A stretch of DNA of 13,411 nt from a virus (IMGVR_UViG_2548876950_000004:1-13411), one strand, 5' to 3'. Shown: positions 872-13,167, counted from the first letter of the stretch. Program-made: numbers and translations. The notes: a model not told the origin generated them from the letters alone.

Positions 872-1291
872 TTACTCCGGTGGGGGATTATCTTTAAGCC
901 TGCCTCTCAAATATTTTTCTACATACTCATCGATTTCTTTTAGCCGGACTTCAAATAGCTCAATCATTCGTTGTTGTTCTGAGCCAGGTAGCTGGTTAAA
1001 CAACTCAAGAAGTTTTCGTTGGGATTCATTTAACCACAATTCAGAAGATTCCTGTTCTCCAAATAGGAGCTCAGGAGGAGATATGCCAAGTGCCTTTCCC
1101 AATACGACAGCGTCATGCACTCCAACATTTCTGCTGCCCGCCTCATAGTTACCTATACGCGATTGCGTCCATCCGCAGATTTCAGCAAGTTTTCCTTGAG
1201 ATAAACCAAGCTTCTGCCTGCGCTCTTTAAGACGCATTGCAATTTTGTCATTGAGCCTACTAGCGGCAATTTTTTCGTTTTCTTTTTCCAT
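872..1291 (-). CDS. CI-like prophage repressor, XRE-family HTH, 139 aa, no S24 peptidase domain
   Basis: HTH segment LGLSQGKLAEICGWTQSRIGNYEAG; divergently oriented to a Cro-like gene across a 96-bp operator region; C-terminal part is charged/coiled-coil like with no Ser-Lys autocleavage domain. Confidence 0.8.
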   Translation of the reverse strand: MEKENEKIAASRLNDKIAMRLKERRQKLGLSQGKLAEICGWTQSRIGNYEAGSRNVGVHDAVVLGKALGISPPELLFGEQESSELWLNESQRKLLELFNQLPGSEQQRMIELFEVRLKEIDEYVEKYLRGRLKDNPPPE

Positions 1292-2915: not shown

Positions 2916-3662
2916 ATGAAAAATATTGCGACAGGCGGTGTTCTTGAACGTATCCGTAAGCTGGCTCCGCAGCATGTAACCGCGCCGTACCGGACAGTGG
3001 ACGAGTGGCGAGAGTGGCAGCTTGCAGAAGGGCGAAAACGTAGCGAGGAGATCAACCGCCTGAATCGTCAGTTGCGGGTGGAAAAAATTCTGAATCGCTC
3101 AGGCATCCAGCCGTTGCATCGTAAATGCTCGTTTGCAAATTACCAGGTGCAGAACGACGGCCAGCGATACGCGTTAAGCCAGGCGAAATCCATCGCCGAT
3201 GAACTGATGACCGGGGGTACAAATTTTGCGTTCAGCGGAAAACCTGGTACCGGGAAGAACCACTTAGCGGCAGCTATCGGAAATCGCCTGCTGAAAGATG
3301 GCCAGACAGTGATTGTGGTTACTGTGGCTGATGTTATGAGTGCCCTGCATGCCAGCTATGACGACGGACAGTCAGGCGAAAAATTTTTGCGGGAACTGTG
3401 CGAAGTGGATCTGCTGGTTCTTGATGAGATTGGCATTCAGCGCGAGACGAAAAACGAGCAGGTGGTACTGCACCAGATTATTGATCGACGGACAGCGTCG
3501 ATGCGTAGCGTGGGAATGCTGACAAATCTGAACTATGAGGCCATGAAAACATTGCTCGGTGAGCGGATTATGGATCGCATGACCATGAACGGCGGACGCT
3601 GGGTGAATTTTAACTGGGAGAGCTGGCGTCCGAATGTCGTCCAGCCAGGAATTGCGAAGTAA
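2916..3662 (+). CDS. DnaC-like helicase loader, AAA+ ATPase (IstB/DnaC family), 248 aa
   Basis: Walker [16 protein letters not shown] and Walker [10 protein letters not shown]; size and placement after the initiator gene. Confidence 0.85.
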
Positions 3663-3684
3663 TTTTTACCGGGAGAAAAATTTA

Positions 3685-4446
3685 ATGGAGACTGTTTTTG
3701 ACGCACTGAAAGCAATGGGAAAAGCCACATCCATAGAACTTGCTGCGCGACTTGATATCAGTCGTGAAGAGGTACTGAACGAGCTGTGGGAACTGAAAAA
3801 AGCTGGTTTTGTTGATAAAACCGCGTACACCTGGCGCGTGGCTGAAAACAACGTTCAGCAGGAACAGTCAGCGCAGGCAGAACTGCCGGAAGAAACCACC
3901 ACAGCAACAGTAGCGAAAATCTCAGAGTGCGATTTAACCGCAACGATTGAACAACGCGGACCACAAACGGCTGATGAGCTGGCTACATTGTTTGATACCA
4001 CATCACGCAAAGTGTCTTCAACGCTGGCAATGGCAATCAGCAAAGGTCGTCTGATTCGCGTAAATCAGGGCGGTAAATTTCGTTACTGCATACCGGGCGA
4101 TAATTTACCAGCAGAGCCGAAAGCAGCATCGGTAGCGGAAACTGATGGTAAAGCCTTTCCTCAGCCTGCATGTGTTGCGTTACCAGTACAGGAAGCTGCA
4201 ACACAGGAAGATATTAAAACAGAAACGATGGCGGACATTGTGCAGTCGCTGCCATCGTTTACTGCAACGCGATCTGATGATTTGATTTTGCCATCGCTGC
4301 ATTTGGCAAACCGCGAACTGCGTCGGGCGAAAAATCATGTCCAGAAGTGGGAGCGTGTCTGCGCCGCGCTGCGTGAGTTGAACAAGCACAGGGATATTGT
4401 ACGACAGATTACTGATTCTTCCCGCCATGTTGCATCGGAAAAGTGA
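3685..4446 (+). CDS. Hypothetical phage protein with two winged-helix-like segments, about 253 aa
   Basis: Start chosen at ATG 3685 (GGGAGA upstream) to avoid overlap with the DnaC-like gene. Segments [30 protein letters not shown] and [35 protein letters not shown] resemble winged-helix DNA-binding folds. Confidence 0.55.
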
Positions 4447-4461
4447 TTGCCGGAGGCGCTT

Positions 4462-4854
4462 ATGGCAAAAGTATTTACACAAGAAGAGCGGGAAGAAGTG
4501 AAGGCGCGCATTGTGGAATTCGTGCGCCTGAGCGGACGAGAAACTTTTCGACAACTGGCAGATAAAACGGGTGTCAGTAAGACCGCTATTCGTCGTTTAT
4601 CTGGTGCGCTTGCGGCCAGTGGTGATGTCTGGCTCTCTGGTTGCGGGGTATTTCCATCAGAGCAGGCGTATCGCGTATGGCGTAAGACACCGGAGAAGGC
4701 TGCTGACCCGACACTGATTCGAAAGTTACCTGACGGAGAAATACGTCGTTACAACAGACGGCAGAACATAATTTGTCGTGAGTGCCGCCAGAGCGAAGTT
4801 ATGCAGCGTGTGCTGGCGTTCTATCGGGGAAACTTTCAGGAGGTGATGTTGTGA
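4462..4854 (+). CDS. Hypothetical HTH-containing protein, about 130 aa
   Basis: GGAGG 5 nt upstream of ATG 4462; HTH-like FRQLADKTGVSKTAIRRLSG; stop overlaps the next gene's start. Confidence 0.5.
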   Translation: MAKVFTQEEREEVKARIVEFVRLSGRETFRQLADKTGVSKTAIRRLSGALAASGDVWLSGCGVFPSEQAYRVWRKTPEKAADPTLIRKLPDGEIRRYNRRQNIICRECRQSEVMQRVLAFYRGNFQEVML

Positions 4855-5324
4855 GTGAGTCGGCTACCATTCTCGACATGTGCTGTGGCAGTCGCATGTT
4901 CTGGTTTGATAAGAATGACGAACGGGCGATATTTAGCGATATCAGAAAAGAAGAGCACACATTGTGTGATGGACGACGCCTGATTATCAGTCCTGACCTG
5001 ATAGCAGATTTTCGAGCATTACCATTTGCAGACGCATCGTTTCCGGTTGTTGTATTCGACCCTCCGCATCTTGAGCGTGTTGGTGATAACGCCTGGATGG
5101 GAAAGAAATATGGACGGCTGAATAAAGATACCTGGCGAGATGATTTGCGGCAGGGATTTAAAGAAGCCTTTCGTGTGTTGTGCCCACGCGGCGTTCTGAT
5201 TTTTAAATGGAATGAAACGCAAATACCTGTTCGCCAGATATTGGTACTGACCGACAGAAAACCTGTTATCGGTCAACGAACAGGAAAAAACGATAAAACC
5301 CACTGGATTATTTTTATGAAATAG
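4851..5324 (+). CDS. Putative small SAM-dependent DNA methyltransferase (N6-adenine type, DPPH motif), about 157 aa
   Basis: GTG start at 4851 with AGGAGG 6 nt upstream. Motif I-like ILDMCCGSRMF followed by motif IV-like VVFDPPHL, the order seen in gamma-type amino-methyltransferases. Confidence 0.45.
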   Translation: MSESATILDMCCGSRMFWFDKNDERAIFSDIRKEEHTLCDGRRLIISPDLIADFRALPFADASFPVVVFDPPHLERVGDNAWMGKKYGRLNKDTWRDDLRQGFKEAFRVLCPRGVLIFKWNETQIPVRQILVLTDRKPVIGQRTGKNDKTHWIIFMK

Positions 5325-5572
5325 GCATCCAGTGAGTAGGTTCGTAAGGTTACAGATGCGTATATCTGAATAATTAAATTCAGTTCTGTAAATAAAATTT
5401 AATCCTTAACCGGAGGGATTCCTGCACCCTCAGAACATCAGGAGACCGCCCGAAAGGGCGGTAATGAAAAATGGCTGAATGAACCAAATGGCTACAAAAC
5501 ACGATTACCGGAATTGAAACGGTAGTAGACGATAAATCGTTTGTATGTGATGAAATAGTATTCAAAATCGAT

Positions 5573-5938
5573 GTGGTTAAAAACGTACTTACCGCATTTA
5601 AAGTCGCGCTGGTATCGCTGGAAGCCGAACCGGTGACATGGCGATATCGCTACGTGAGAAAAGGCGTTACGAACTTTCAGGAGAAGCCGTGGGTTGGTGA
5701 CTGGAAATATGTACCGACAAAAGAGGATTGCAACGACAGGCCGAACTATGAAATTCAGGCGTTATTCACGGCCCAGCCTGTGCCACTGACACCCGAAGGA
5801 TTGATTAAAGCGGTGCGCTTCTATGAACAGGTTAAGAGTGAAAATCCGCCAGTCGAAACCGGAGCATGGAAAGACGCTGTTGACTGGGTGCTCAAAGAGG
5901 CTTGTCAGGCTGTAAACATTGGCATCAAAGGAGAGTGA
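5573..5938 (+). CDS. Hypothetical protein, 121 aa, start uncertain
   Basis: Long ORF with no internal Met; GTG start at 5573 lacks a clear ribosome-binding site. Leads a co-oriented, tightly packed cluster. Confidence 0.45.
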   Translation: MVKNVLTAFKVALVSLEAEPVTWRYRYVRKGVTNFQEKPWVGDWKYVPTKEDCNDRPNYEIQALFTAQPVPLTPEGLIKAVRFYEQVKSENPPVETGAWKDAVDWVLKEACQAVNIGIKGE

Positions 5939-5939
5939 G

Positions 5940-6131
5940 ATGAACGGACAAATCTCAATTGTTCGACCGGGAGCATGTGACGATTGCGAGATACGAATGA
6001 TTATTCGTCTGGCGATGGGGAAAACAATAACTGCTCTCATTACTCCAGAAAATCTCGCATTAGCATTAACAGGAAAGTCAGACCTGCCAGTAGAGCTAAA
6101 GCTGCGAAATGTTGAGATTAAGGTGAAATAG
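5940..6131 (+). CDS. Hypothetical protein, 63 aa
   Basis: ATG at 5940 with AAGGAGAG 5 nt upstream, two bases after the upstream stop; ends 2 bp before the next gene. Confidence 0.5.
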   Translation: MNGQISIVRPGACDDCEIRMIIRLAMGKTITALITPENLALALTGKSDLPVELKLRNVEIKVK

Positions 6132-6133
6132 CT

Positions 6134-7555
6134 ATGACCACTATTACCAAAGAGCGACTGCTGACAATCAAGCAGTGGCGCGAAACATACGGACCTGGTA
6201 GCAACGTTGTACTGCCAGCAGAAGAAGCGGAAGAACTGGCACGGATTGCACTGGCATCATTGGAAGCAGATCCAGTTAAACGAGTTAACTCAGATCAGAT
6301 GCACCGAGTCTGCTTAGAAGCTAATCGCTATTTAGATAAATATGACGCGATGGCGAAAGAGGTAAATAAGTTGCTTGGACGCATCGCCCCGCCAGCGCCA
6401 GTATTTAACGGCGAATACGGTGACGCATATCAGGGCGCTCGTGAAGACCTGTCCATCTGGAAACGGCGAGCGCTTGAAGCTGATGAGCACGTTCGGCGAC
6501 TGGAGCAAATCAATGACCACATGGTGAAAGAGGCGCAGGGAGAATCACGCATGGGCGAGCCTGTAATACGTGAGCCAGCACCGGTAGTGCCTGAAGAAGC
6601 AACTCCGGAAAACGTAGAAATGCTCTCTGGCTATGTTTCAACGTACAAATTAACCGATAGCGAGCGCGATATTGCTGCCGAAATATGGAACGCCTGCCGC
6701 GCCGCCATGCTTCAGTCAGGAAACTTTCGGGAAAACAAGAATTCGTCAACCAATAATTTTCGGGAAATCGAGGAAACGTCAACCAACTATCCGGCAATTC
6801 CTAGTGAGGTGTTGTCCGCAATCCTGAAGGTTGCCAGGATTCGTGCCGATTTCGATGATTTTGACGGTGACAGGCGAGGTATCGGTGATTGTCTGGATGA
6901 GGCTGAGCAAGAGCTTATCGTTACCATTAACAAATATGCCAGTCAGTTGGCAGCAGAACCGATAGCGACTAATGACGTTCGAGAGCAGCAGACAGCCGTT
7001 CCGCCAGTTCCGGAAATACAGGCTGATGTCGCGCAAGCAATTGAAAATCTCAAGCAGAAGCTAGTGGAATGTAATCGCTATAACTACTGCGCAGATGCAG
7101 TTAAAGGCGTAGAGGATGCCTGCCGTGCTGTTAGCTATAGCCAAGCCGACAATCAACCAGCATCTGGCAACCAGGCTGCCGAATCCAATCGCGGTAATGA
7201 GTGGACCGGCAATCCTGATATTGATAACGCCATCATCATGCTCGACCGCATAGATACGCTGGAAAATTGCGATGATGACCGTATTGAGGCTGTTAAGGCT
7301 GTTTTGCGTAGACTGGCTGGCAACTATCCGGTAACTCCGGATGGTTGGATAAGCTGTAGTGAGCGAATGCCGAATACCAAAACAGCCGTTCTTGTTGCCG
7401 TGGAGTTTGACAGGAAAGGTGACTGGCGAATGAAATGGGCTACTTACATCCCGGGGCATCCTGACGCTAATGATGGGTGGATAATTCCTGGTGCGTCGTG
7501 GAAACCGTCACACTGGATGCCGCTACCAGAACCGCCGCAGGAGGTGCGCCAATGA
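6134..7555 (+). CDS. Large hypothetical phage protein with DUF551-like C-terminus, 473 aa
   Basis: AAGGTGA ribosome-binding site; acidic, low-complexity central region; C-terminal WISCSERMP...SHWMPLPEPP matches the recalled DUF551 signature. Confidence 0.6.
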   Translation: MTTITKERLLTIKQWRETYGPGSNVVLPAEEAEELARIALASLEADPVKRVNSDQMHRVCLEANRYLDKYDAMAKEVNKLLGRIAPPAPVFNGEYGDAYQGAREDLSIWKRRALEADEHVRRLEQINDHMVKEAQGESRMGEPVIREPAPVVPEEATPENVEMLSGYVSTYKLTDSERDIAAEIWNACRAAMLQSGNFRENKNSSTNNFREIEETSTNYPAIPSEVLSAILKVARIRADFDDFDGDRRGIGDCLDEAEQELIVTINKYASQLAAEPIATNDVREQQTAVPPVPEIQADVAQAIENLKQKLVECNRYNYCADAVKGVEDACRAVSYSQADNQPASGNQAAESNRGNEWTGNPDIDNAIIMLDRIDTLENCDDDRIEAVKAVLRRLAGNYPVTPDGWISCSERMPNTKTAVLVAVEFDRKGDWRMKWATYIPGHPDANDGWIIPGASWKPSHWMPLPEPPQEVRQ

Positions 7556-7805: not shown

Positions 7806-7909
7806 GGTAAAAACGGTTTGCGGTAAAGCGAGAGTTAAGTAGAATTGCTGCGGGTGCTTGAGGCTATCTGCCTCGGGCATGCCACCGTAAGGCAGACAGA
7901 GAAAAGCCC

Positions 7910-7975
7910 CAGTTAACATTACGCGTCCGGCAAGACGCTTAACATTAATCTGAGGCCATATCTATGCTCTACACA
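7910..7975 (-). ncRNA. Expected position of the Sok-like antisense RNA of the hok locus (approximate, not delimited)
   Basis: Placed by analogy with hok/sok architecture, where the antisense RNA overlaps the leader and upstream start region. Promoter and 3' end could not be pinned from sequence. Confidence 0.25.
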
Positions 7976-8020
7976 CGTAGGTTAGCCTCTTACGTGCCGA
8001 AAGGCAAGGAGAAGCAGGCT

Positions 8021-8176
8021 ATGAAGCAGCAAAAGGCGATGTTAATCGCCCTGATCGTCATCTGTTTAACCGTCATAGTGACGGCACTGGTAACGAGGAA
8101 AGACCTCTGCGAGGTACGAATCCGAACCGGTCAGACGGAGGTCGCTGTCTTCGTAGACTACGAATCTGAGAAGTAA
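8021..8176 (+). CDS. hok: Hok/Gef-family type I toxin, 51 aa; in-frame upstream start at 7964 gives a 70-aa Mok-like form
   Basis: MKQQKAMLIALIVICLTVIVTALVTRKDLCEVRIRTGQTEVAVFVDYESEK has the hallmark Hok/Gef transmembrane segment and TRKDLCEV...GQTEVA motif; AGGAG upstream of ATG 8021. Confidence 0.8.
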   Translation: MKQQKAMLIALIVICLTVIVTALVTRKDLCEVRIRTGQTEVAVFVDYESEK

Positions 8177-10176: not shown

Positions 10177-10202
10177 CTCAATCTGTTATCCGGGGCTATA
10201 TT
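10173..10202 (+). promoter_or_regulatory. PR'-like late promoter (TTGACT-N18-TATATT)
   Basis: -35 TTGACT at 10173-10178 overlaps the stop of the upstream gene; -10 TATATT at 10197-10202. Confidence 0.55.
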
Positions 10203-10264
10203 CCTCACGCGCCAGCAAAATCTGGCGTCGGGATTAGGAACCCCGGATAGAGACCGCGACAGAC

Positions 10265-10287
10265 ACACGCCGCGAGCGTGTTTTTTA
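10265..10287 (+). terminator. tR'-like intrinsic terminator ending a short (about 80 nt) leader RNA
   Basis: Hairpin ACACGC-CGCGA-GCGTGT followed by TTTTTTATT, about 60-80 nt downstream of the PR'-like promoter. Confidence 0.65.
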
Positions 10288-10449
10288 TTGTCGTATGCAC
10301 GCGCACATCTGAATTATGGTGGGGCGTATGGGGGAGCTGAAAAGCTCGCCGGTTGGTTTCCCGGTAGTTCCTAACCCTGTACGTCTCACCACCCGATGAT
10401 TAGGAACCTGACGGTGGTGATGGTTTAGAAACCACCAGAGGGCGTCATT

Positions 10450-11031
10450 ATGACAACTCAAATTTCTGTTGAAACTCTCTCCCCGATCACCCATAACCAG
10501 ATTCCTGTTATTACCACCGAACTTTTGGCGCAGTTGTACGGTGCTGGAGTTAAGAACATTCAAAATAACTACGCCAGAAATGCTGAGCGCTTTATTGAAG
10601 GAAAGCATTTTTTCAAAGTGGCTGGCGATGCCCTGAAAAATTTGCGGGTAGCTTTAAACTACTCACAAAATTTGCAACCATCTTTAAGAGGGTTACAAAT
10701 TTCCCCGAAAGCCCGCTCCCTCATCCTCTGGACAGAACGCGGAGCAGCCCGTCATGCCAAAATGCTGGAAACCGATCAGGCGTGGGATGTGTTCGAAAAG
10801 CTGGAAGACTGCTATTTCAGACAAAAGGATCCGTCAGCGCCAGTTTCATGCCAGAAAAGTTACGACACGCGAGTTCTCTGTTATCAGAGAGGCGGTGTCA
10901 CTGTTTCCACAATTCAGTTACGGGATGATGATATTGTTATTTCCCTTGAGTCATGGCTGGAACTGGCGAGAGCCAATGGTTGGTTTGTTGTTCGCAGAGA
11001 TAAACTGGTGGAAAGGTTGATGCAGCTTTAA
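10450..11031 (+). CDS. ORF6N/KilA-N-like domain protein (antirepressor-type regulator), 193 aa
   Basis: N-terminal IPVITTELLAQLYGAGVKNIQNNYARNAERFIEGKHFFKV matches the recalled ORF6N consensus (LAELYG...RN..RF...F). Confidence 0.55.
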   Translation: MTTQISVETLSPITHNQIPVITTELLAQLYGAGVKNIQNNYARNAERFIEGKHFFKVAGDALKNLRVALNYSQNLQPSLRGLQISPKARSLILWTERGAARHAKMLETDQAWDVFEKLEDCYFRQKDPSAPVSCQKSYDTRVLCYQRGGVTVSTIQLRDDDIVISLESWLELARANGWFVVRRDKLVERLMQL

Positions 11032-11607: not shown

Positions 11608-12321
11608 ATGGCTGTTGTCTGTTCAGTTATCATGGTTTGCTCCCCAATTAATATTTTTCTTGAAAAGGATACGTTGTCACTTAAGCCAGGCTCAGTCGTT
11701 CTGGCCACCAAATGCATCAGGGAGCTTTTCCTTATGCATTATGGCAAAGTTAAAATTGTCGATATAAGCGAATCCGTCGTAAGTCAATATCTGGAAAGTC
11801 AGCATAAGCTGACGAGGACTCGTCTGACTGACATTCCGCTTTACCTGTTGCTGGAACCCAACAATCCTGCGTTGGCTGCGGCTTTAATTACCAGCCAGGG
11901 ATTTTCCGGAGAGGTCACGGATATGTTTCTTATGATGGCCTGCCTGTCTCTGTTTGAAACAGATGAACGGATGTCATTGTTTTTAAGTGGATGTTTATCC
12001 AGCATAAGTGCCAAAGTCAGGGCGATAATTCAGACAGATATATCAGCAAGCTGGACGCTTGGTGCGATTGCTCTACAGTTGCATATGAGTGAGAGTTTGT
12101 TAAAGACAAAACTGAAAAATGAAGGGGGCATGTTCAGTCGCTTGTTGCTGGAAGAGCGGATGCGTGTTGCTGTAAATATGTTATGTTCCCGGCATGGATA
12201 TGGACAGGCTGTAGCAGAAAAATGCGGTTATTCAAGCAGGTCCTACTTTATTTCTGTATTTCACCGCTATTATGGCTTCCCGCCAGACAGATATGTATCC
12301 AGGCAAGGGCTTGATTATTGA
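11608..12321 (+). CDS. AraC/XylS-family transcriptional regulator, 237 aa
   Basis: C-terminal double-HTH typical of the family (SWTLGAIALQLHMSESLLKTKLK...YGQAVAEKCGYSSRSYFISVFHRYYGFPP); located in the cargo slot between Q and the lysis genes. Confidence 0.75.
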   Translation: MAVVCSVIMVCSPINIFLEKDTLSLKPGSVVLATKCIRELFLMHYGKVKIVDISESVVSQYLESQHKLTRTRLTDIPLYLLLEPNNPALAAALITSQGFSGEVTDMFLMMACLSLFETDERMSLFLSGCLSSISAKVRAIIQTDISASWTLGAIALQLHMSESLLKTKLKNEGGMFSRLLLEERMRVAVNMLCSRHGYGQAVAEKCGYSSRSYFISVFHRYYGFPPDRYVSRQGLDY

Positions 12322-12349: not shown

Positions 12350-12425
12350 GGCCCTTTAGCTCAGTGGTGAGAGCGAGCGACTCATAATCGCCAGGTCGCT
12401 GGTTCAAATCCAGCAAGGGCCACCA
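12350..12425 (+). tRNA. tRNA with CAU anticodon (Ile2/Met type, ileX-like)
   Basis: Cloverleaf by hand: acceptor GGCCCTT/AAGGGCC, anticodon loop CTCATAA, T-loop TTCAAAT, 3' CCA. Close to the host ileX sequence as I recall it. Confidence 0.7.
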
Positions 12426-12426
12426 A

Positions 12427-12503
12427 CCGCCACTAGCTCATCAGGAAAGAGCGTCAACCCTTTAAGTTGAGTGTGCGAGGTTCGAGTCCCCGGTGGCGGT
12501 CCA
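12427..12503 (+). tRNA. Atypical tRNA-like gene, anticodon UUU (Lys-like), possibly a pseudo-tRNA
   Basis: Acceptor CCGCCAC/GTGGCGG with CCA end, D-arm and TTCGAGT T-loop present, but C at position 33, a C1:G72 start and one T-stem mismatch. Confidence 0.45.
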
Positions 12504-12505
12504 GT

Positions 12506-12581
<76 letters not shown>

Positions 12582-12584
12582 TAT

Positions 12585-12659
<75 letters not shown>

Positions 12660-12951: not shown

Positions 12952-13167
12952 ATGAAATCCATGGACAAAATTTCAACGGGCATTGCCTACGGCACCTCCG
13001 CAGGCAGTGCTGGCTACTGGTTTTTACAGTGGCTTGATCAAGTCAGTCCGTCACAGTGGGCTGCGATTGGTGTACTGGGGAGTCTGATTCTGGGCTTCCT
13101 GACTTATCTGACAAATCTGTACTTCAAAATCAGAGAAGACAAGCGTAAGGCTGCACGGGGAGAGTAA
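12952..13167 (+). CDS. Phage 21-type class II holin (pinholin) with dual-start motif, 71 aa
   Basis: [27 protein letters not shown]...[13 protein letters not shown] closely matches S21 as I recall it, including the M-K-S-M dual start (12952 and 12961); GGAGGTGAGG ribosome-binding site. Confidence 0.85.

Follow-up and report, generated by a model that had tools for sequence, protein, structure and literature searches.

The stretch of DNA analysed here in its full length of 13,411 nucleotides (IMGVR_UViG_2548876950_000004:1-13411; the window) belongs to a Rac-like lambdoid prophage of E. coli, of which it represents the early-right and late-regulatory part. At positions 4851..5324 of its plus strand lies a small open reading frame (ORF) that, in our reading, probably encodes an orphan phage-borne S-adenosylmethionine (SAM)-dependent DNA amino-methyltransferase of the small gamma-class M.NgoMXV/M.NgoDCXV family, with N4-methylcytosine (m4C) as its most likely product. 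Read directly from the sequence, the ORF starts with GTG (4851-4853), stops with TAG (5322-5324) and comprises 157 codons, and a Shine-Dalgarno sequence, AGGAGG (4838..4843, plus strand), lies 7 nt 5´ of the start codon. RefSeq has the identical coding sequence (WP_024237025.1, "class I SAM-dependent methyltransferase"). A preliminary description of the window, made from the sequence alone, had proposed here an ORF of roughly 157 amino acids (aa) with a strong ribosome-binding site, encoding a very small orphan phage DNA amino-methyltransferase of the N6-adenine or N4-cytosine type. The gene call is borne out by the features just given, and motif invariance, a fold model and family homology support the assignment.

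The methyltransferase gene follows a DUF977 gene (4462..4854, plus strand; YdaW-like, "Ren-like exclusion protein"; Pfam DUF977, E 2.7e-42; phrog_142; a RefSeq coding sequence), whose TGA stop codon (4852-4854) shares bases with the GTG. Translational coupling of the two genes is likely given this GTGA overlap. An in-frame GTG at 4782, which would add 23 residues, was rejected as the start codon, being used by neither RefSeq nor the homologues.

Most family members are 150-165 aa long, so that 157 aa represents the native size of the family and not a truncation. Longer homologues have either heterogeneous, unrelated N-terminal extensions, which look like start-codon miscalls, or C-terminal read-throughs, and a Pfam scan of them for domain fusions yielded no more than a single fusion to ASCH and a spurious one to Polysacc_synt. 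The protein had been called unusually small for an amino-methyltransferase, which is partly right; its length is, however, the norm within its family and is not unprecedented outside it, since the unrelated Pfam Dam family (PF05869) has members of about 170 aa. That family, to which the 175-aa methylase of phage 933W (M.EcoVT2Dam, GATC) belongs, likewise consists of orphan amino-methyltransferases that lambdoid phages encode in their nin or early region and that have no separate recognition domain. Kinship with these small phage Dam proteins was considered and rejected: hhalign of our 51-sequence family alignment against the 933W Dam gave a probability of 0.3%.

In this alignment, which reaches down to 41% identity, the invariant columns are D9, D30, R32, P48, D70, P71, P72, H73, E105, R108, K119 and P138. 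The motif I region, ILDMCCGSRMF (residues 7-17; 4869..4901, plus strand, as are all motifs below), spans strand 1 and the SAM-binding loop; next to the invariant D9, C12 and G13 are conserved in at least 90% of sequences, and the Methyltransf_25 model aligns with residues 7-69. At the end of strand 2 lies D30-I-R32 (residues 30-32; 4938..4946), of which we take D30 to be the acidic residue of motif II, presumably binding the ribose hydroxyls of SAM as in other class I methyltransferases. In the motif III region, PDLIADF (P48-D49...D53; 4992..5009), both D49 and D53 are at least 90% conserved and are expected to contact the SAM adenine. Motif IV, DPPH (residues 70-73; 5058..5069), which we take to be the catalytic tetrapeptide of amino-methyltransferases, comes right after strand 4. 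It was found in 142 of the 147 representatives of 50%-identity clusters, the scan failing to find it in the other five, and a His at the fourth position of motif IV has a precedent in the NPPH of Thermus thermophilus TrmN, where H263A cuts activity to 25% (PMC3367198). Beyond motif IV, a loop and short helix (..KKYG.L...W, residues 74-95; 5070..5135) has Y87, G88, L90 and W95 conserved in at least 90% of sequences, and this segment and residues 122-150 could jointly stand in for a target-recognition domain.

The ILDMCCGSRMF and DPPH motifs were already the basis of the preliminary description, and the 61 residues between D9 and D70 fit its estimate of about 60. Its alternative, that the motifs are coincidental, is excluded by their invariance across the family and by a confident class I methyltransferase model. 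This AlphaFold2 model, built from the 51-sequence alignment (pLDDT 94.6, pTM 0.89), has the class I (Rossmann) fold of SAM methyltransferases, recognised by a seven-stranded beta sheet, a glycine-rich SAM loop behind strand 1 and an acidic residue closing strand 2; the absence of a methyltransferase fold, named earlier as part of what would refute the idea, did not materialise. In the model, strand 1 (residues 7-9) leads into the CCGS loop and strand 2 (26-30) ends in D30; a beta hairpin (34-46) and a short strand 3 precede strand 4 (64-69), which DPPH follows immediately, and the remainder consists of helices 82-87 and 95-109 and strands 110-121, 140-144 and 150-156. The model thus shows the protein as a minimal class I methyltransferase, predicted to fold without a separate target-recognition domain. 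A (D/N/S)-P-P-(Y/F/W/H) tetrapeptide directly after strand 4, the signature of amino-methyltransferases, is present as DPPH at residues 70-73. The order of motifs is that of the gamma class, with motif I (7-17) before motif IV (70-73) and only strands 2 and 3 and the hairpin between them.

Comparison with known structures leaves the choice of substrate wider. Searches of the PDB with the single sequence and with a profile returned generic methyltransferases only (best sequence match E 0.8), and no structure of the family itself has been solved. The nearest solved structures with a (D/N)PP motif are the RNA N2-methylguanine methyltransferases Trm11, TrmN, RsmC and Trm14, with M.TaqI first appearing at Foldseek rank 25; the fold search alone does not settle the substrate. 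The Trm11, TrmN and RsmC enzymes share the (D/N)PP motif, TrmN with His at its fourth position, but they are cellular housekeeping enzymes and not phage genes, and they have THUMP or N-terminal RNA-binding domains of their own. The window protein is a single 157-aa domain whose Trm11 match has an E value of 0.38, and it falls outside this group. A likeness of another kind is to the beta-class enzymes of PF01555 (TTHA0409, PDB 2zie), whose N-terminal half aligns with the motif IV-VI segment VVFDPPH....W..L...F.E..RVL.P.G.L. In the window protein, in contrast, the motif order is unpermuted, motif I being N-terminal, and the large recognition insert is absent.

Database models give a graded picture of the same protein. 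It matches phrog_954, "DNA methyltransferase", at E 4.9e-86, and, over their full length, two PADLOC models, MTase_II with E 1e-72 and oMTase with E 2.1e-49. In Pfam it narrowly passes the Methyltransf_11 cutoff of 21.2 with 21.6 bits, and the score of its best NCBIfam match, PRK14968.1-1 "putative methyltransferase", is 16.8 bits, the cutoff there being 242. These curated general libraries tell little about the family, on which the phage- and defence-oriented ones are explicit. The window protein has no match to Pfam N6_N4_Mtase (PF01555). Weak matches to that model occur in 15 of the 51 family members (best 19.3 bits against a cutoff of 26.7; best E 0.0012), and it is the only substrate-specific family that recurs. 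The profile comparison that had been suggested against N6-adenine and N4-cytosine methyltransferases therefore came out in favour of the idea with PHROG and PADLOC and below cutoff with Pfam N6_N4_Mtase and NCBIfam. Homology supports DNA as the substrate, as far as sequence can indicate it. The labels that PGAP, IMG and Pfam give to the family are generic ("class I SAM-dependent", "TRM11 family", "UbiE").

A more specific assignment comes from characterized relatives. The name "DNA N-4 cytosine methyltransferase M.NgoMXV" is attached to family members in three independent sources: a Klebsiella variicola At-22 protein, which belongs to a cluster at 90% identity (85% identity between its representative and the window protein), an IMG Streptococcus entry, and the UniRef name of a Streptococcus equi cluster. 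The window protein is also 50% identical over 151 residues (E 1e-54) to the methyltransferase of the Streptococcus iniae SF1 prophage Javan272. This is the sole methyltransferase gene of Javan272 and lies 14 genes past the integrase; its translation contains ILDACCGSRMFWFDK...VVFDPPH. In S. iniae QMA0248, the product of QMA0248_1949 is reported to share 95% identity with M.NgoDCXV, a gamma-class orphan methyltransferase that makes m4C at GCCHR; the gene lies 13 genes after QMA0248_1936, the integrase gene with which prophage Phi1 begins, and Phi1 and the SF1 prophage are reported to be 99% identical (bioRxiv 10.1101/2019.12.17.880476). Taken together, the identity to the Javan272 protein, the reported M.NgoDCXV match and the names of the family members place the window protein in the M.NgoMXV/M.NgoDCXV family, its full-length homology to a characterized member being indirect and running through Javan272 and the preprint identity.

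Like these Neisseria gonorrhoeae enzymes, the window protein is an orphan with the motif order of the gamma class and an Asp-type motif IV; it differs in belonging to an enterobacterial lambdoid prophage and in being about 50% identical to the streptococcal M.NgoDCXV-like lineage. M.NgoMXV was reportedly described by Radlinska, Bujnicki and Piekarowicz in 1999 and 2001 as atypical, with Asp in motif IV in place of SPPY, and it is said to be without a conventional target-recognition domain. GCCHR occurs at 193 sites in the window, about one per 70 bp, where dinucleotide-preserving shuffles predict 155 +/- 10. E. coli codon usage presumably favours GCCAG/CTGGC, and because it is the probable cause of this excess, we treat the excess as uninformative on the methyltransferase.

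The family is very large, with thousands of clusters. Among 1.8 billion cluster representatives, 2024 relatives were found at E <= 0.001 and 235 at E <= 1e-30, and word-indexed searches gave at least 8000 candidates. The gene is present in 1008 of 5426 complete E. coli genomes, at up to five places per genome and nearly always on the chromosome, and in 855 E. coli genomes the DNA match spans at least 80% of it. A tblastn search found 254 phage records, from hosts including Streptococcus, Vibrio, Acinetobacter, Porphyromonas, Listeria, Gordonia, Lactobacillus, Enterococcus and Staphylococcus, with 47-66% identity to the E. coli protein across phyla. In all the contexts examined (the prophage of the window, T12, A006, Pickett, ZF40, Javan272 and four phage- or prophage-like contigs) the gene is located in the early replication/recombination module, among genes for RecT, Erf, SSB, RusA, NinB, a helicase loader or a DNA polymerase.

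Within that module, no flanking gene is conserved across lineages in these contexts. The DUF977 helix-turn-helix protein and the neighbours in eight other phages and prophages were considered as a conserved partner for DNA recognition and rejected, since the neighbours differ by lineage; the upstream DUF977 gene is specific to enterobacterial prophages and is thus not a general specificity partner. Five ORFs flanking the methyltransferase gene (3634-7552) match DUF1627, DUF977, DUF551 and unknown PHROGs. Neither these ORFs, searched with nuclease and defence models, nor eight other contexts contain a restriction gene, in agreement with the earlier remark that the gene has no partner. Without the adjacent cognate endonuclease of a Type II restriction-modification system, the methyltransferase is an orphan. 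A large DNA methylase of the N6_N4 type (525-835 aa) adjoins or lies near the small one in Gordonia phage Pickett, Pectobacterium phage ZF40 and one metagenomic prophage (loci L005 1418-2995, L006 3465-5618 and L009 2710-5217), and that of the metagenomic prophage carries N6_N4_Mtase and SNF2 domains.

In the window, the genes leading up to the methyltransferase encode a cI-like repressor (872-1291, minus strand), a cro-like protein (1388-1630), YdaT (1627-2049), an O-like initiator (2127-2909), a DnaC-like loader (2916-3662) and a DUF1627 protein (3685-4446). The order then runs from the DUF1627 and DUF977/YdaW-like genes through the methyltransferase to several unknown PHROG families with a DUF551 protein and on to hok/sok. 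These are followed by a DUF1367 protein gene (in a NinB-like position of the nin region), ybcO and a gene for a Q-like DUF1133 protein, and then by a c4/isrK antisense-RNA module that includes an anti-repressor-like ORF6N-domain gene; an AraC-type regulator, four tRNAs and a holin complete the order. In the 100%-matching strain, the prophage is degraded: it carries IS1203 insertions, recE-like and DUF551 genes are pseudogenes, and a lysis gene is truncated.

Several other features of the region were recorded. The 248-bp spacer 3´ of the methyltransferase gene (5325-5572) is AT-rich, with a GC hairpin at about 5444-5462 (ACCGCCC-GAAA-GGGCGGT); it folds better than shuffled sequences (z = -2.7), parts of it are 88-98% identical to spacers of phage mEp460, Rac and other phages, and neither an Rfam family nor a consensus terminator was found in it. 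Two genes downstream of the methyltransferase, a 70-aa ORF (5919-6131, plus strand) matches with its C-terminal 35 residues positions 83-117 of phrog_11564 "DNA methyltransferase", and positions 1-93 of the same PHROG match the N-terminal half of the window methyltransferase; a further locus (L002 4124-4480) was noted likewise. Given these split matches, phrog_11564 looks like a deletion fusion, in other prophages, of the methyltransferase with the 5919-6131 ORF. Phage PhiR42_1 has a truncated 118-aa version of the methyltransferase. The ORF at 6134-7555 is continuous in the window (473 aa, with a C-terminal DUF551 domain), and the RefSeq annotation of the matching genome shows three DUF551 fragments here, of which two are marked as pseudogenes. 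The hok/sok type I toxin-antitoxin locus occupies 7852-8176, with the Rfam sok match at 7852-8026 (112.6 bits) and the end of the Hok/Gef ORF at 8176. A P1/P7-type immunity module (10196-10396; c4-a1b1 targets, isrK and C4 antisense RNA, all by Rfam) lies directly 5´ of the ORF6N-domain anti-repressor-like ORF (10450-11031). Between the AraC-type regulator (11608-12321) and the holin (12952-13167) are four phage tRNA genes (12350-12659), with anticodons CAT, TTT (Lys), TGT (Thr) and TCC (Gly), the first of which is called Met by ARAGORN and Ile (lysidine type) by PGAP.

Its position in a repressor-controlled early operon suggests that the methyltransferase should be silent in the lysogen. After induction or infection, the early-right transcript would be translated, with the methyltransferase co-translated with the DUF977 protein. 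The enzyme would bind SAM through the D9/G13 loop, D30 and D49/D53, and the target base would be flipped into the DPPH pocket, where D70 could hydrogen-bond the exocyclic amine and H73 stack on the base; the methyl group would then be transferred to the exocyclic nitrogen. In the absence of a recognition domain, the conserved loops at residues 74-95 (KKYG.L...W) and about 122-150 must be the source of any sequence preference, which would be short and relaxed. The outcome would be phage DNA that is protected in advance against the restriction enzymes of the next host. If the site is GCCHR, as in the characterized relative, methylation of the 193 sites in the window would mask many restriction sites. 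A role in modulating host gene expression, the other possibility raised in the preliminary description, finds no support: the gene is located in the repressed early-right operon, and published single-molecule real-time (SMRT) methylomes of two lysogens show no extra motif.

Several observations weigh against an m4C methyltransferase of the M.NgoMXV/M.NgoDCXV type. The curated DNA-methyltransferase models stay below threshold (in Pfam only Methyltransf_11 is reached, and in NCBIfam none), and PGAP names some members "TRM11 family methyltransferase". The link to the characterized enzyme runs through a preprint statement and synteny, and at 50% identity the recognition sequence does not carry over. 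A literature search returned no measurements on the window protein or any enterobacterial member, and searches on DPPH, DUF977, "TRM11 family methyltransferase" and general terms did not find the family. In two O111 Shiga toxin-producing E. coli (STEC) strains, 95NR1 and 95JB1, which carry a 96.4%-identical copy, the SMRT methylomes give only GATC, CTGCAG and CRARCAG, and the gene is absent from the REBASE-based list of the O111 STEC paper. No GCCHR methylation was seen in the S. iniae lysogen, which carries a relative with about 50% identity (bioRxiv 10.1101/2019.12.17.880476). A repressed prophage gene would be expected to give such results, which fit inactivity equally well.

Inactivity, in the form of a decaying cargo gene of a defective prophage whose motifs persist only by recent descent, has in its favour the lack of a reported methylation signal from the gene in these lysogens, the degraded prophage of the 100%-matching strain and the truncated or fused derivatives found elsewhere (phrog_11564, phrog_6151 and the 118-aa PhiR42_1 version). 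We regard it as very improbable, since the ORF is full length with all invariant family residues intact, at least 80% of the gene is covered in 855 E. coli genomes, and the family, which is also present in functional phage isolates including T12, A006, ZF40 and Gordonia phages, shows strong purifying selection across phyla. Chance motif matches in a protein that is no methyltransferase could at most appeal to the Pfam score, barely at threshold (21.6 against 21.2 bits); the fold and conservation results already refute this idea, and we give it practically no weight. An enzyme acting on something other than DNA, either the exocyclic amine of an RNA (N2-guanine of tRNA or rRNA, as with Trm11 and TrmN) or a protein Gln or Lys, and serving host takeover or anti-defence, seems to us improbable, although less so than decay. 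The protein has no THUMP or other RNA-binding domain, its sequence matches to Trm11 and RsmD are insignificant (E 0.38-0.64) and NCBIfam scores fall far below cutoffs, while the family is tied to the DNA m4C enzyme M.NgoMXV/M.NgoDCXV and constantly located among DNA-metabolism genes. As for the RNA enzymes that head the structural comparison, the beta- and alpha-class DNA enzymes are circularly permuted relative to the window protein and are therefore disadvantaged in sequential structure alignment.

The alternative that we take most seriously, while still thinking it unlikely, keeps the family and DNA as substrate and changes the product or specificity, for example to non-specific or very relaxed N6-adenine or N4-cytosine methylation in broad anti-restriction of the Hia5/M.EcoGII kind. 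Non-specific prophage adenine methylases do exist (PMC3299994; PMC7556043). Hia5, Hin1523, Nme1821 and M.EcoGII are, like the window protein, prophage orphan amino-methyltransferases (PMC3299994; PMC5778455), and the Hia5-type enzymes are silent in lysogens and thought to give broad protection against restriction (PMC3299994; PMC5778455). They differ in being at least 280 aa long and of the alpha class (Dam/DpnM-related), with DPPY, a divergent recognition region and N6-methyladenine (m6A) as product (PMC3299994). A protein of only 157 aa without a target-recognition domain would suit low specificity, and the DPP type of motif IV is common to m6A and m4C enzymes. The identity of 47-66% between E. 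coli and Streptococcus, Gordonia and Bacteroides phages, also counted on this side, is unusually high for a phage protein; conservation so high across phyla suggests one shared simple target. Against a different specificity, the only characterized lineage is reported as m4C at GCCHR, and the known non-specific enzymes, at 280 aa or more, belong to other families.

Two further possibilities bear on how so small an enzyme finds its target, and we think them less likely than not. A 5-bp site could be read, and a base flipped, by two loops alone of a reduced Rossmann domain that is without helices A-C, or the enterobacterial clade could have a different or near-absent specificity. If the two-loop reading is true, this would be a DNA-recognition architecture without a solved relative, its structural neighbours being only generic methyltransferases. 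If the specificity is different or near-absent, no broad-spectrum DNA methylase would be smaller, and the protein would offer a compact tool for footprinting.

The kind of element is already known and catalogued, with a RefSeq annotation, its own PHROG and PADLOC models and a characterized relative. The practical value of our analysis lies in annotation: the literature link indicates a DNA m4C methyltransferase of the M.NgoMXV type, where databases label the family generically, and this family is very common, being found in roughly a fifth of complete E. coli genomes as well as in temperate phages from many phyla. If the enzyme is active in lytic growth, packaged phage DNA would carry m4C, which would be relevant to restriction evasion, to pairing phages with their hosts through methylation motifs, and to the interpretation of long-read methylomes from induced cultures.
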